Notes: generated by a model from the letters alone, not told the origin. DNA of 64,000 nt from Escherichia phage naam (MN850630.1); one strand, 5' to 3'. Positions 4,675-44,793 are shown, numbered from the stretch's first letter. A program made the numbers and translations.

Positions 4675-5880
4675 ATGATTTTCATCTACGAACATTTCAA
4701 AACCCGTAAAGAAGCACGAGACCGCCGTGCAGAACTTGAGAAGAAGGGTTTCACATGTGCCATTGAGAAAGGCGACACAACCTGGACACTGGCAGTTGGT
4801 GCCCCAGAGTTGTTCGATCCTGACCGTGACAGCGTCTGCTACACCCGTGAGGATTTTGAAACCCGCGAAGAGGCCCGTTTATTTCGATACGGTCTGGAAG
4901 ATAACGGTAAGTACGCTATGATCTTAGATTTAGGCGAAGGTTCCGTTAAACGTTGGGGCGTGGTATACCCACTGTGTGTTGTTCACGGTGTGGGGTTCAC
5001 TGGGGTAGCAATCAAGTCAGAAGAACCTTTAGTAGAAGTCAAAGATCCGGTGCTGGAGGTGGTGAGCAGTGTGTCTCAGCAACAGACTCGAAGCATCGAG
5101 CCTTTGGTAGTTATTTGTGGGGAACTCCTCCAGATCACCTGCAACGAAGGCATTTTTGAAATTCGCCGCAGCGAAAGTGAGGAAGTTTACCAGAAAGTCT
5201 TCGACCATATCTCTGTTCAGGAATATGATGAGGCAATTGGTGAAATCCTTGTCTGGCTGGAACGCAAGAATGAGTTCACCACACTTGCAGACAACCTGAT
5301 CATGAAAGATGGTAAGCTCTACTACTACGGTGTAGAGATGCGATCCACCATTGCAAAGAAAATTGAGAAAGATTATGCAGACGGAACGCTGGATGACCGC
5401 TATGTGAAATTCCTCGTTCGCCTGCTACGCAATCCTTCTGCAAAATCTGTAAACATGCTCTACGATTTTATGCAGGCCAACGATATCCAGATTGCCGAAG
5501 ATGGTCGAATCATTTGCTACAAAGGGGTTCAGTTTAACGGCAGCAAGTGGGTGGATTGGCACAGTGGTAAAGTTCCACAATACCAGGGTGCTTTTGTATC
5601 CATGCCTCGTAACTTTGTAGAGGATGATCCGGAAGCTGCGTGCTCCTATGGCTTACACTGCGCCAGCAAAGAGTATGCAAAGAGCTACGGCACTGTAATG
5701 ACTGTTATGGTTGATCCTGCAGATGTGGTTAGTGTGCCATACCAACACAATAGCGCTAAGTGCCGTGCATGCCGCTATGAGATTGTGGTAGCTCCGGAAG
5801 CACGCAAAGATGGAGACCCTATTGAATATGTAGTTGATCGTGACGGTAACACTATCGACATTCTTTACGAGGAGGCGTAA
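4675..5880 (+). CDS. rIIB: putative rIIB-like partner protein
   Basis: Position directly after the rIIA-like gene, size 401 aa, AAGGAG RBS; no diagnostic motif recognised. Confidence 0.3.
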   Translation: MIFIYEHFKTRKEARDRRAELEKKGFTCAIEKGDTTWTLAVGAPELFDPDRDSVCYTREDFETREEARLFRYGLEDNGKYAMILDLGEGSVKRWGVVYPLCVVHGVGFTGVAIKSEEPLVEVKDPVLEVVSSVSQQQTRSIEPLVVICGELLQITCNEGIFEIRRSESEEVYQKVFDHISVQEYDEAIGEILVWLERKNEFTTLADNLIMKDGKLYYYGVEMRSTIAKKIEKDYADGTLDDRYVKFLVRLLRNPSAKSVNMLYDFMQANDIQIAEDGRIICYKGVQFNGSKWVDWHSGKVPQYQGAFVSMPRNFVEDDPEAACSYGLHCASKEYAKSYGTVMTVMVDPADVVSVPYQHNSAKCRACRYEIVVAPEARKDGDPIEYVVDRDGNTIDILYEEA

Positions 5881-41371: not shown

Positions 41372-41632
41372 TTACAGCACCTCTTCGTCAACTACTTCAT
41401 AAAAATGGCCTGGGATTGCAATAGCGTTCTCACCTTCACCTACAAACACAGTTCCGTCAAGAATCAACATCATAAGAATTTCTGTAATATCCTCTTCCGG
41501 AACGTTGCCAAAACCTTTAATCAGCTCGTAGGTTGGAATATTTACCTCTAAGATGTCACCATCTTTAGAACGGAAATCAACACCGTCCTGAATCTCTGCC
41601 GTTTCAAGGTTTTTCAATTTAATCTTCATCAA
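41372..41632 (-). CDS. small acidic protein (paralog family)
   Basis: MMKIKLKNL start; ends VVDEEVL. Confidence 0.55.
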   Translation of the reverse strand: MMKIKLKNLETAEIQDGVDFRSKDGDILEVNIPTYELIKGFGNVPEEDITEILMMLILDGTVFVGEGENAIAIPGHFYEVVDEEVL

Positions 41633-41708
41633 TCGGTCTCCTGTCTTGTTAAGATGAAGGTATTATTTCACACAGGGTTGGCGTTGTCAACACCTGTGTG
41701 CAAGAAAA

Positions 41709-42104
41709 TTACTGAAACAGTGCGGATAAATTACCTTCTGGTGGGAACTTATCTGCCAAAAACGGTGTTAGCACAGTAGCCTTCTGAAGATCTGGGGTCC
41801 ACTCGTTGTTCAGAACATCCCAGTAGTACGCAATGTTGCTGTGTGGGTGCCGCATTACGAACTTTTTTCCTTCGTAGTCATCTGAAACCTCTACAGAAGA
41901 AATAACAACAGAATCTTCAAGGGTTTCTTCATAGAAAGATCCGCCTTCAAATTTCCAACGAGATGCAAGAGCCCCTGCCTTGAACGCTGCAGATAACGGA
42001 CTGTCGGCAAGAACATACATTTCTTGCACTCTGTCGCTGCGATCTTTGCTTCTTACGTTGTATACAGTATCTGAGCTATACTCAACACGGTATAGGCTTA
42101 CCAT
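41709..42104 (-). CDS. hypothetical protein (paralog of 43911..44309)
   Basis: Shares HP.S...YW......WTP with 43911..44309. Confidence 0.55.
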   Translation of the reverse strand: MVSLYRVEYSSDTVYNVRSKDRSDRVQEMYVLADSPLSAAFKAGALASRWKFEGGSFYEETLEDSVVISSVEVSDDYEGKKFVMRHPHSNIAYYWDVLNNEWTPDLQKATVLTPFLADKFPPEGNLSALFQ

Positions 42105-42436
42105 TACCGCACCTCCTCAATAACTTCCACATCTGAACCTACCACAAATGCAAAAGGACAGGTTTCATGAAAGACATCCGGATCGCCGCCAAGCTTGCTA
42201 ACAATCTCTCCACCACTAATAAACACAAGCTCACCGATATTCATCAGATTGCTGAAATAGTACCCATAATGATTAAAGAATGCAGCAGGGTCAGGTAGAC
42301 TAGTAGCCTCAAGCACTACATCAGTTGAGGTTACTTTCTTATCATAACCTCTCGCCTTTTGAGATGCAAGATCTGCAGAATCCTCAGGCGACCGGAGATG
42401 CACAGGAATTGTTTCACCAATAAAGCGTACTTTCAT
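42104..42436 (-). CDS. small acidic protein (paralog family)
   Basis: ATG (MKVRFIGE) after GGTGA, clear of the upstream gene (track ORF 42104..42463); ends VEVIEEVR. Confidence 0.5.
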   Translation of the reverse strand: MKVRFIGETIPVHLRSPEDSADLASQKARGYDKKVTSTDVVLEATSLPDPAAFFNHYGYYFSNLMNIGELVFISGGEIVSKLGGDPDVFHETCPFAFVVGSDVEVIEEVR

Positions 42437-42440
42437 ATTA

Positions 42441-42704
42441 TCACCCAACAACCATAGCTTCAAAAGGGGTCATGAACGAATAAACGGCATCATCATCTGC
42501 TTCAGGGAATGCTCCCAAAGACTTCATGTCTGAGCCCTTGACAAATACAAGGTTTTGATCAAAAGCTTCTTGAGGATCAATCCGATACATATTTCGTAGA
42601 ATATCGCCTACCTCCTCATCAAGAGGTGAGTATGCTGTGCACGTTTTTCCGATCAAGCTTTGAGAATCAGGGTATCCACCTGAAGTTTTAAAATAAACAA
42701 TCAT
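42441..42704 (-). CDS. small acidic protein (paralog family)
   Basis: LVFVKGSDMKSLGA core. Confidence 0.55.
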   Translation of the reverse strand: MIVYFKTSGGYPDSQSLIGKTCTAYSPLDEEVGDILRNMYRIDPQEAFDQNLVFVKGSDMKSLGAFPEADDDAVYSFMTPFEAMVVG

Positions 42705-42795
42705 ATAGTATCACCTCTGGTAAGAGATTGGGATTCCTTTCCCACAAATAATTACAAACCTTCCTTATCGAGGAAGTATGCTAATCCAAGCAGGA

Positions 42796-43065
42796 TTATT
42801 CCTCTACAATCTCATACACATCCGGAGTTACAATCAACTCTTCTCCGTTACCCGGTGCAACAAACACCACCATGCCTTCAGGTGTGTGCTTTTTAGCCAT
42901 CTCGATAACATCTTCTCGCAGAGCTGGCTCCATCAGATCAAAACCTTCACCCAGGGCATCACGAACCACCTTCATATAGTCAACTGGTTGTGCTTCGACA
43001 ATCATACCTTCAACCAGTTCACAGTTTTTGTCTGCCAGCTCAGTTTTGAATAATTTAATTTTCAT
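42796..43065 (-). CDS. small acidic protein (paralog family)
   Basis: MKIKLFKTE start; ends VYEIVEE. Confidence 0.55.
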   Translation of the reverse strand: MKIKLFKTELADKNCELVEGMIVEAQPVDYMKVVRDALGEGFDLMEPALREDVIEMAKKHTPEGMVVFVAPGNGEELIVTPDVYEIVEE

Positions 43066-43202
43066 TTAGAGGTCTCCTCAATTATTTGATATTAATAGCC
43101 GTAACCTAACACATTAACTACAACTGCGATTGCAAACATAATTTCAAAGCATGCAATCTCTACATTTGGGACTAATTTCTTGATCACACCCATTGTAGCA
43201 CC

Positions 43203-43520
43203 TCATTCTCTAAAGTCAATCTTTACTTTGCCTTTCCCCTTACCTTTCTTTCCACCGCATTTAGCCAGTTGACGTGCTGCAACATCTACCATACGGTCAG
43301 TTGCCTCGTAAGCATCACTGCCTTTAGCTTTGGCAATAACTTCTTTTCCAGAATTGTCAAAAATGAACGCCATAACTTCCTGGTGATCATTTTCAACTTT
43401 TACACTCACACGTGCATAGTTGGCAGAGGGATGCAAACGCTCCAGCTTAGACATTTTGTGGGAAATGAAAGACACCATACCTTCAGTGATTTCTACGTTG
43501 CCAGTGATTTCAATTTGCAT
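43203..43520 (-). CDS. hpf: ribosome hibernation promoting factor / RaiA-like protein
   Basis: MQIEITGNVEITEG...KLE...VKVE...AKGSDAYEATD...ARQLAK parallels E. coli HPF (MQLNITG.NVEIT...KLE...KVEK...AEGQDMYAAID...ARQLTK); 105 aa. Confidence 0.75.
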   Translation of the reverse strand: MQIEITGNVEITEGMVSFISHKMSKLERLHPSANYARVSVKVENDHQEVMAFIFDNSGKEVIAKAKGSDAYEATDRMVDVAARQLAKCGGKKGKGKGKVKIDFRE

Positions 43521-43567
43521 AACGTGTTCCTTTTAAAGAAGAGGGAACCAAACCCTCTTTGAAAACA

Positions 43568-43596
43568 ATGATACTAAATCTGAAGCGTTGTGTCAA
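43568..43596 (-). promoter_or_regulatory. sigma70-like promoter upstream of the hpf-like gene
   Basis: Minus strand TTGACA, 17-bp spacer, TATCAT; leader hairpin AAGAGGG...CCCTCTT before the RBS. Confidence 0.55.
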
Positions 43597-43602
43597 CAGT
43601 TT

Positions 43603-43893
43603 TTACAGATTGTTGTCGATAGTTTTTAAAATATCCACAGCAAGATCTGCCATTTTTCGAACATACTCTGCAAACTCAACAGGATCCTTGATCAAAGAAT
43701 TCACAGGGTCGTACCCTAGAGCGTTCAAAATGGCTGCAGCATCTACAACCTTCTCATCATTTGCGAAGATCTCTCCATCAAACTTGTAGGTCCATTTTGA
43801 GTCAATCTTGGCAGGGAATGATTGGTCAACGCTTGTTACACCATCCTTTTTAAACGCTCCGGTGTTATCAGTGTCTAGAACTAAATCCATCAT
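43603..43893 (-). CDS. hypothetical protein
   Basis: 96 aa. Confidence 0.55.
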   Translation of the reverse strand: MMDLVLDTDNTGAFKKDGVTSVDQSFPAKIDSKWTYKFDGEIFANDEKVVDAAAILNALGYDPVNSLIKDPVEFAEYVRKMADLAVDILKTIDNNL

Positions 43894-43910
43894 GTTAGTA
43901 CCTCACCGTT

Positions 43911-44309
43911 TCAGTTTAGCTTTTCTTCAACAACCCCATAGCTCGGGACAGAGTCAAGAGCTTTCTGGTTTAAAAGTGGTGTAGCAGAATCTGCAAACGG
44001 TGTCCAAGTTTTTGTTCTGGCATTCCAGTAATGCTTCACTCTGGAATCTGGATGCACTATAACAAAAACTTTTTCACTTGTCAACACATTAATTTCTTCT
44101 ACACCCTTGCTGATAATTTCTCCGTCATAGCCACCAGTCTGGTATCCTTCGTACCAGGTTCTTGCATATGCATAGCCAGCCTGCCAGCATGCAGCCTCCT
44201 CCGAGGTGGAGACTACGTAGAAGTCTTTCTCAAATTCTGGGATACGCCCTTGCTTTACGCTCCAAGCTCCGCGAATTTTCATTGTAACTTTGAACAGTTT
44301 ATTTTTCAC
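43911..44309 (-). CDS. hypothetical protein (paralog of 41709..42104)
   Basis: HPDSRVKHYWNARTKTWTP motif. Confidence 0.55.
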   Translation of the reverse strand: MKNKLFKVTMKIRGAWSVKQGRIPEFEKDFYVVSTSEEAACWQAGYAYARTWYEGYQTGGYDGEIISKGVEEINVLTSEKVFVIVHPDSRVKHYWNARTKTWTPFADSATPLLNQKALDSVPSYGVVEEKLN

Positions 44310-44321
44310 AACGGTTACCCA

Positions 44322-44576
44322 TCACAGCTCTACAATCTCTGCATCTGACCCTGCCCCAAAGGCATAATAGGATTCTTCCCCGAAATAATATTCCGGTGCA
44401 CCAGCAGCGATCAGGTCTGATCCCAAGATAAACACCACGTTGTGGCCTACATAACTGTGATGTTGCCGCACAGGATCATCCCACGGCAACCCTTCAAAGT
44501 ATACCGCAGGAACGACCTTTCCCTTCAGGAAGGATTGTCCCAAGTAGACGTTAGAATCAAGAATTTTAACCTTCAT
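44322..44576 (-). CDS. small acidic protein (paralog family)
   Basis: MKVKILDSNVYLGQ start; VFILGSDLIAAGA core. Confidence 0.55.
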   Translation of the reverse strand: MKVKILDSNVYLGQSFLKGKVVPAVYFEGLPWDDPVRQHHSYVGHNVVFILGSDLIAAGAPEYYFGEESYYAFGAGSDAEIVEL

Positions 44577-44793
44577 TCTCGTCCTCCACTATCTCTACAT
44601 CCTCACCAAGGGCAAAGTTGTAGGTCCACTGGCTGTCAAAGCAGTCCTGAGATGCACCAGCGGAAATAAGATCTGCACCTTTTATTTTTAAAAGGTCAGG
44701 ATAATCTTCGTTAGGGATAGCGGTAAACACTTTCCCCACTAAGGGCTCCTGACCAATATAGAAGCTTGAATCTAAAACTTTAACTTTCATCAA
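44566..44793 (-). CDS. small acidic protein (paralog family)
   Basis: MMKVKVLDSSFYIGQ start; LKIKGADLISAGA core; ends EIVEDENEG. Confidence 0.55.
   Translation of the reverse strand: MMKVKVLDSSFYIGQEPLVGKVFTAIPNEDYPDLLKIKGADLISAGASQDCFDSQWTYNFALGEDVEIVEDENEG

Follow-up and report, generated by a model that had tools for sequence, protein, structure and literature searches.

Among the described proteins close to the one considered here are the short HPF of E. coli (YhbH, 95 aa; PDB structures: 2rql, 4v8h, and 6h4n) and E. coli RaiA (YfiA, or protein Y), which has its fold and ribosomal binding site in common with HPF and carries a flexible C-terminal extension that reaches past helix α2 toward the RMF site. 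A 2025 preprint on Gram-negative hibernating ribosomes (bioRxiv 10.1101/2025.10.07.680626) gives the residues through which HPF touches the ribosome: Lys80, Arg83, Lys87, Lys89 and Lys91 of α2 contact 16S rRNA, Thr53 and residue 62 contact m2G966, His/Arg55 and Glu60 contact the C-terminus of uS9, and Lys26 and Gln29 lie close to m3U1498.

Few phage genes act on the translation machinery of the host. Mizuno et al. (2019, Nat Commun, PMC6375957) included a 105-aa protein of phage rV5 (ABI79209) among virus-encoded ribosomal proteins, placed the coliphage HPFs among gammaproteobacterial sequences, and proposed that viral HPF might compete with cellular HPF, preventing dimer formation. When expressed from pBAD24 in E. 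coli NM522, rV5 HPF was found in the crude extract by mass spectrometry; it was undetected in 70S and 100S particles isolated under high-stringency salt, and the level of 100S was unchanged (PMC6375957). The authors considered three possible reasons, namely that the growth phase was wrong, that binding has truly been lost, or that the protein came off in the salt wash, and called the test non-conclusive (PMC6375957). The jumbo phages Cronobacter phage GAP32 and Escherichia phage PBECO4 also encode proteins of the S30AE/HPF fold (PMC6375957). The hpf gene was subsequently mentioned, "as already described", in five new rV5-like gut phages (Mathieu et al. 2020, PMC6969025), and our literature search on the function or transcriptomics of Vequintavirus hpf found nothing later beyond PMC6375957 and PMC6969025. 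In the rV5 genome, hpf belongs to a region of 88 mainly small ORFs, and 33 sigma-70-like promoters are distributed over the whole genome (Kropinski et al. 2013, PMC3606486).

The hpf gene and its product

The window analyzed here is a 64,000-nt stretch of Escherichia phage naam (MN850630.1). The original prediction, made from this sequence and given without a strand, was of a 105-aa homolog of HPF/YfiA. There is an exact ORF of 105 codons at that position on the minus strand (Table 1), running from ATG to TGA; its translation is MQIEITGNVEITEGMVSFISHKMSKLERLHPSANYARVSVKVENDHQEVMAFIFDNSGKEVIAKAKGSDAYEATDRMVDVAARQLAKCGGKKGKGKGKVKIDFRE, and the fragments quoted in the prediction are identical to it. 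The rV5 protein ABI79209 is the same protein in the same genomic position (99% identity; P0001), with Gly in rV5 and Arg in the window protein at residue 104 and nothing else of substance to distinguish the two. The finding of a phage HPF is correct and already known, as the gene had been annotated, published, and partly tested before; its role was described in the prediction as an uncommon auxiliary function, but hpf is in fact annotated in most Vequintavirus records and treated in print.

Table 1. Coordinates of features at the hpf locus of phage naam, counted from the first nucleotide of the window
Feature	Coordinates	Strand	Remarks
hpf CDS	43203..43520	minus	105 aa and stop; short-HPF-type member of the HPF/RaiA (Ribosomal_S30AE) family
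Disordered Lys/Gly-rich tail, codons 89-105, GGKKGKGKGKVKIDFRE	43206..43256	minus	pLDDT <50, and variants
Shine-Dalgarno-like AAGGA	43528..43532	minus	7-8 nt 5' of the hpf ATG; seen in the sequence
Leader stem-loop AAGAGGG-N7-CCCTCTT	43539..43559	minus	7-bp stem, in MFE and centroid structures
Sigma-70-type promoter TTGACA-17-TATCAT	43568..43596	minus	11/12 matches; enriched class, conserved
33-aa hydrophobic ORF	43092..43193	minus	starts 9 nt past the hpf stop; strong GAGGTG Shine-Dalgarno sequence
89-aa acidic ORF	42796..43065	minus	PHROG 11868; position 3' of hpf kept in the divergent clade
First terminator-like hairpin with T-rich tail past the hpf promoter	42760..42776	minus	6 pairs, 3 of them G-C; consensus match only

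Membership of the product in the HPF/RaiA family is secure, since profile scores and predicted fold agree. The homology to HPF/YfiA and the profile searches proposed for checking it were both borne out: the curated cut-offs of the two general family models are exceeded, with 48.3 bits for Pfam PF02482 (Ribosomal_S30AE; gathering score 23.7, E = 1.8e-12, residues 3-88 matched to profile positions 1-83 of 88) and 45.9 bits for NCBIfam TIGR00741 ("HPF/YfiA family"; cut-off 40.9). Sequence comparison with PDB entries matches residues 1-89 to the E. coli HPF chains 2rql, 4v8h and 6h4n (E-values from 5e-12 to 2e-11). An AlphaFold2 model built from a 23-sequence alignment (mean pLDDT 84, pTM 0.74, core blocks at pLDDT 88-96) has the β-α-β-β-β-α topology, with strands at residues 2-7, 33-43, 46-55 and 60-67 and helices at 13-29 and 70-89, and superposes on HPF. 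The best 36 Foldseek matches in the PDB are HPF, RaiA or pY chains without exception; the top one is chain 6h4n_x, the HPF of the E. coli 100S ribosome (TM-scores 0.81/0.89, rmsd 1.2 Å, 41% identity over 92 columns).

Within the family, the phage protein is by sequence clearly closer to short HPF than to RaiA, although it is no HPF equivalog. Its best-scoring NCBIfam model is PRK10470 (NF007780, the enterobacterial HPF/YhbH equivalog), with 55.8 bits against a cut-off of 125, and the RaiA equivalog PRK10324 (NF007654) gives 17.6 bits against a cut-off of 158. The protein belongs to a PHROG of its own, 12469 (E = 2e-70), and matches the generic phage S30AE family, PHROG 8990, weakly (E = 1.5e-6). 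At 105 aa it is a single domain, with residues 91-105 disordered, and the C-terminal dimerization domain of long HPFs (about 60 aa) is absent. Like RaiA, it is longer than short HPF; however, its tail does not resemble that of RaiA in sequence, is rich in Lys and Gly, varies, and tolerates frameshifts. The GenBank label "RaiA" is thus a family-level name only, because the cut-off of the RaiA equivalog is missed and the extension is unrelated and variable. Compared with the jumbo-phage proteins of the same fold, the product of hpf shows 20-22% identity, a different PHROG, and no tblastn match at E = 1e-3; the jumbo-phage and Vequintavirus HPFs are probably independent acquisitions, as Mizuno et al. 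concluded (PMC6375957).

Ribosome-contact positions and the C-terminal tail

We mapped the contact positions onto the phage protein through a HMMER alignment to E. coli HPF and recorded the composition of each column in 18 cellular homologs (Table 2). The alignment with E. coli short HPF covers residues 1 to 89, with one residue fewer in the β1-α1 loop of the phage protein and one more before β4. The core motif D69/Y71/D75/D79 is kept. The conserved basic surface residues on which the original prediction was to be judged are present in part: K23, K26, R83, K87 and K91 are retained, along with E60, whereas K80 and K89 are lost; D51 and T53 are also replaced, and M70 has become Ala. Val or Thr at position 80 and Phe at position 55 occur in a minority of the cellular homologs as well, so such substitutions need not weaken binding.

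Table 2. Ribosome-contact and other compared positions of HPF, with residue counts in 18 cellular homologs
E. coli HPF position	Cellular homologs	Window protein	Sister clade P0004	State
K23	K 18/18	K	K	kept
K26	K/R 17/18	K	K	kept
Q29	R 10, K 5, Q 3 of 18	R	R	kept (basic)
D/E51	E 15/18	M	S	lost
T53	T 8/18	F	R	lost
E60	E 8/18	E	V	kept in the window protein
H/V62	V 7, H 3, R 3 of 18	I	M	hydrophobic, like V62 forms
M70	M 14/18	A	A	changed
K80	K 14/18	V	T	lost
R83	R 14/18	R	R	kept
K87	K 13/18	K	K	kept
K89	K 13/18	G	S	lost
K91	K 12/18	K	S	kept in the window protein

A further departure from E. coli HPF is found at the C-terminus. Helix α2 stops at C88-G89-G90, and instead of the ordered KHKxKL end of cellular HPFs (KHKDKLKQH in E. 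coli) the phage protein continues into a disordered Lys/Gly tail of 15-17 residues, GGKKGKGKGKVKIDFRE, where residues 91-105 have pLDDT below 50 in the AlphaFold2 model. The tail has seven Lys or Arg residues against two Asp or Glu, and the pI of 5.9 calculated for the core rises to 9.0 for the whole protein. It is encoded by an AAAGGN-type tract, and indel variation in this tract gives products of 101, 104, 105 and 106 aa. An additional G in the GGGG run, seen in at least three records (APECc02, locus L009, gene at 601-906; Murica, H84; and P0003), shifts the frame and yields a protein of 101 aa that ends in ...CGRKKGKGERQSKD; the recurrence reflects either slippage that is tolerated or a sequencing error that keeps arising in the homopolymer. 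In the sister clade the tail differs in sequence and is basic too. In these comparisons the tail conserves its basic character and not its sequence, and a specific RaiA-like docking role is disfavored, since its extreme end tolerates frameshifts.

Distribution and transcription of hpf

The window comes from a phage of the rV5-like genus Vequintavirus: over the 3 kb around hpf, its identity is 100% with Escherichia phage PMBT16 and 97-99.9% with many other members of this group. By tblastn, 118 of the roughly 120 rV5-like records carry the protein, at 95-100% identity and with all matches in this group, under a variety of deposited names: "sigma 54 modulation factor" in rV5 (DQ832317), "ribosome hibernation factor" in the BASEL phages, and elsewhere "hpf" or "RaiA". 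Eighteen rV5-like genomes (MG0656xx), 92-99% identical to the coliphage analyzed here, were deposited as "Campylobacter phage" with Campylobacter jejuni as the host; these are most likely mislabeled or co-isolated coliphages.

Outside this group, relatives are few. A word-index protein search reached the rV5-like clade itself and one sister clade (P0004) at 64% identity, and no cellular HPF. The sister proteins have 103 aa and are encoded in syntenic position on contigs, 125-137 kb in length, of uncultivated Vequintavirus-like phages; at loci L003-L006, from Logan/ENA contigs of 39-125 kb, hpf stands at 5001-5312. The GenBank phage collection gave no tblastn match to this lineage. When 1.8 billion cluster representatives were searched exhaustively with HMMER, only 22 matches reached E ≤0.001, of which the best genuine ones besides P0004 are short HPFs of gammaproteobacterial type with 31-45% identity. 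One candidate, P0006 (1160 aa, eight matching stretches), was rejected as a repetitive protein of biased composition. A scan of IMG/VR added only two further loci.

The core of the gene (codons 1-87) is under strong purifying selection: dN/dS within the rV5 clade is 0.04-0.13, at dS values of up to 0.56-0.63. Synonymous sites are saturated between the rV5 and P0004 clades, and the GC content of hpf, 0.42, falls within that of its surroundings (0.37-0.47). A recent capture from the host was rejected on these grounds and on the 31-45% identity of the cellular sequences. The capture of the gene from a host is instead old, and its base composition is now phage-like, because the nearest cellular HPFs are distant, the GC content matches the phage, and synonymous substitutions between the clades are saturated. 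On this evidence hpf would be a diverged hibernation factor of the short-HPF type that has become fixed in the Vequintavirus phages.

The claim that hpf has its own consensus promoter was confirmed. The promoter begins 7 nt past the stop codon of the upstream 96-aa gene, and it is one of 18 sites in the window that match the sigma-70 consensus at 11 or more of 12 positions, against 1.95 ± 1.3 in first-order Markov simulations, a nine-fold enrichment. All 18 have the orientation of the local genes, which is the plus strand between 16 and 35 kb and the minus strand from 37 to 62 kb (examples are 17370(+), 22475(+), 26466(+) and 52880(-)). Being both enriched over simulation and uniformly co-oriented with genes, these sites constitute a genuine class of promoters. 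The hpf promoter is kept in every rV5-like relative examined, TTGACA stands in the same place in the clade of 64% identity, and in phage Gotham PhagePromoter predicts a promoter at the equivalent place. After about half of the 18 promoters, a short GC-rich stem-loop is seen at the predicted 5' end of the transcript.

The leader hairpin of hpf, another element of the original prediction, does exist; its layout recurs at other promoters and is thus not specific to hpf. The stem starts about 2-9 nt 3' of the -10 hexamer, that is, at the predicted 5' end of the transcript, and similar 5' stem-loops follow promoters 26466(+), 28329(+), 31818(+) and 61585(-). The complete 71-nt leader folds no better than its shuffled versions (z = -0.54). 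Among relatives, the stem is kept with changes in the loop at L008 and L009, remodeled at L007, degraded at L010 (phage A6-1 shows the degraded stem), and missing in the P0004 clade. We therefore rejected the hairpin as a riboregulator specific to hpf, given that the leader folds like shuffles, that the stem is lost or degraded in relatives, and that it recurs elsewhere; we infer that it is probably a generic mRNA-stabilizing 5' feature of the phage.

Downstream of hpf, the 33-aa ORF constitutes a PHROG of its own (15151, E = 4e-26), has a hydrophobic C-terminal half, MGVIKKLVPNVEIACFEIMFAIAVVVNVLGYGY, and is annotated in the BASEL phage AlexBoehm; no such ORF is called in the sister clade of 64% identity. 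The interval between hpf and this ORF contains no terminator-like site, and the ORF is probably co-transcribed with hpf. Next comes the 89-aa ORF, whose homolog, beginning with MKIKLFQT, also comes after hpf at L003. From the position of the first terminator-like hairpin, the transcription unit probably consists of hpf, the 33-aa ORF, and the 89-aa ORF as the last gene. A promoter-like site with 10/12 matches lies at 43219..43192, inside the 3' end of hpf.

The placement of hpf in an early region, part of the original prediction, is plausible in view of the run of small same-strand ORFs with sigma-70 promoters around it. Early timing of expression is likewise plausible from the type of promoter and the gene neighborhood; in rV5, sigma-70-like promoters occur genome-wide (PMC3606486).

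Possible roles in infection and the gene neighborhood

The suggestion that a phage HPF could modulate host ribosome hibernation or translation is a reasonable hypothesis. Tentatively, and with confidence that stays on the lower side, we prefer to see the product of hpf as an early-expressed HPF-type protein that would bind weakly in the decoding channel of the 30S subunit and would not promote 100S formation. Three elements of this reading have direct support, namely family membership (by sequence and predicted fold), purifying selection, and the gene's own sigma-70 promoter. Host RNA polymerase would transcribe hpf early, together with the 33-aa and 89-aa genes, into an mRNA with a 5' stem-loop. 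The protein would then dock in the channel between the head and the body of the 30S subunit (A/P/E-site, mRNA path) of vacant host ribosomes; the same docking site as in HPF is suggested by retention of the contact set, which in E. coli HPF numbering comprises K23, K26, Arg in place of Q29, E60, a hydrophobic residue at 62, R83, K87 and K91. Binding would be weaker and salt-labile, because K80, K89, T53 and D/E51 are replaced, α2 is short, and the KHKxKL end is gone, and such binding would explain why a protein of this sequence gave a negative result at high salt (PMC6375957). The floppy Lys/Gly tail would probably add only non-specific affinity for RNA.

The outcome would most likely resemble the action of RaiA more than that of HPF, with idle ribosomes transiently capped as monosomes or 30S subunits. 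Capping would compete with host HPF and RaiA without driving RMF-dependent 100S dimers, and capping without 100S promotion fits with the extension past α2, which recalls the RaiA tail toward the RMF site. The phage would gain an intact pool of ribosomes, easily reactivated once phage mRNAs accumulate. Against all this stands the fact that the only published test of ribosome binding was negative, and that genuine loss of binding is among the reasons considered by its authors (PMC6375957). A more novel reading, which we consider unlikely, takes the protein to be no hibernation factor in the ordinary sense and makes it a tool against hibernation or a guard of ribosomes: weak binding and the floppy tail would let it out-compete or exclude host HPF, RaiA, RMF, or ribosome-directed nucleases and toxins, ribosomes would be kept quickly reusable, and rV5-like phages could replicate in slow or stationary gut E. 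coli. The 33-aa and 89-aa proteins, probably made from the same transcript, might be its partners in this task.

Several other readings have to be weighed against the same evidence. If the phage protein were a classical hibernation promoter, it would join host RMF in turning 70S into 100S, either shutting off the host or storing ribosomes. The best profile and structure matches are indeed to short HPF, including the HPF of the E. coli 100S ribosome, the length is near that of short HPF, and R83, K87 and K91 are kept; but expression of rV5 HPF in E. coli left 100S without discernible change and the protein was missing from the 100S fraction (PMC6375957), K80, K89 and T53 are lost, the end of α2 is replaced, and the score of 55.8 bits is far from the HPF equivalog cut-off of 125. 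An early global block of translation would, we infer, also stall synthesis of phage proteins, and this role seems to us distinctly improbable. A decoy acting against hibernation, which would displace host HPF and RaiA (and RMF indirectly), detach easily, and wake ribosomes in slow or stationary gut E. coli, overlaps with our preferred reading and shifts the weight from protection of ribosomes to their reactivation. The shared fold, the partial retention of contacts, the changes that should loosen binding, the salt-labile or absent association seen in the experiment, and conservation of hpf across a genus of gut coliphages all agree with a decoy, an idea proposed by Mizuno et al. (PMC6375957). 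Yet a protein that binds more weakly would compete poorly with host factors that are tightly bound, unless it is produced in large excess, and no activity for evicting host factors is evident from the sequence, which leaves the decoy with a low probability.

The HPF fold might also have been kept for a new function, with ribosome binding lost and a target such as mRNA leaders, tRNA, or a defense or stress factor. Ribosome association was undetected in the published test (PMC6375957), four conserved contact positions are lost, the C-terminus is remodeled, the protein stands apart in PHROG 12469 with its weak match to the generic S30AE family (E = 1.5e-6), the nearest cellular homolog is no more than 45% identical, and purifying selection shows that the protein does something. 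On the other hand, most rRNA-contact residues and the whole architecture of the surface are retained, and none of the searches points to another partner, with the neighbors all in PHROGs of unknown function; a change of target is possible, if rather unlikely. By far the least credible reading is that hpf is a host gene once captured and now decaying without function, for which one may cite only that no phenotype is known and that frameshift variants occur at the 3' end. Selection and conservation make it very unlikely: dN/dS stays at 0.04-0.13 with dS reaching about 0.6, the ORF is intact in 118 records, both hpf and its promoter are retained in a clade of only 64% identity, the GC content matches the phage, and the protein is stably expressed in E. 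coli (PMC6375957).

Returning to the preferred reading of a weak 30S binder, if the phage HPF does act on ribosomes, then it would provide a simple model, in E. coli, for the handling of idle or hibernating ribosomes by a virulent phage, which matters for phage therapy and for the replication of phages in bacteria that do not grow. The addition made here is small, and consists of a residue-level reason why binding may be weak, evidence that selection is strong, and an account of the tail as basic and variable. Of lasting interest is what a strongly conserved and partly remodeled HPF does across a whole genus of gut coliphages.

The neighborhood of hpf holds no hibernation or translation module: all ten of the neighbors examined belong to PHROGs of unknown function and have no Pfam matches. 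The 89-aa ORF was considered as a second HPF paralog and rejected, as it has no Pfam match and no BLASTP similarity to the HPF homolog. This ORF is nonetheless called "sigma 54 modulation factor" in several Vequintavirus records (e.g., APECc02, A6-1, and the "(x2)" entries), and since it lacks both a Pfam match and similarity to HPF, the label appears to have slipped onto it from the adjacent gene. The name given to the true HPF gene in bov10K2-type and SA_NWU records is "ATP-dependent protease La type I".

The small ORFs around hpf (41372..44793, minus strand) form paralogous families within PHROGs of unknown function. PHROG 7379 has two members, at 41709..42104 and 43911..44309, which are 28% identical, and PHROG 5009 also has two, at 44322..44576 and 44566..44793. 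Five small acidic ORFs near hpf begin with MK[IV]K[IVL] and have a C-terminal [DE]xE[IV][IV]E motif in common.
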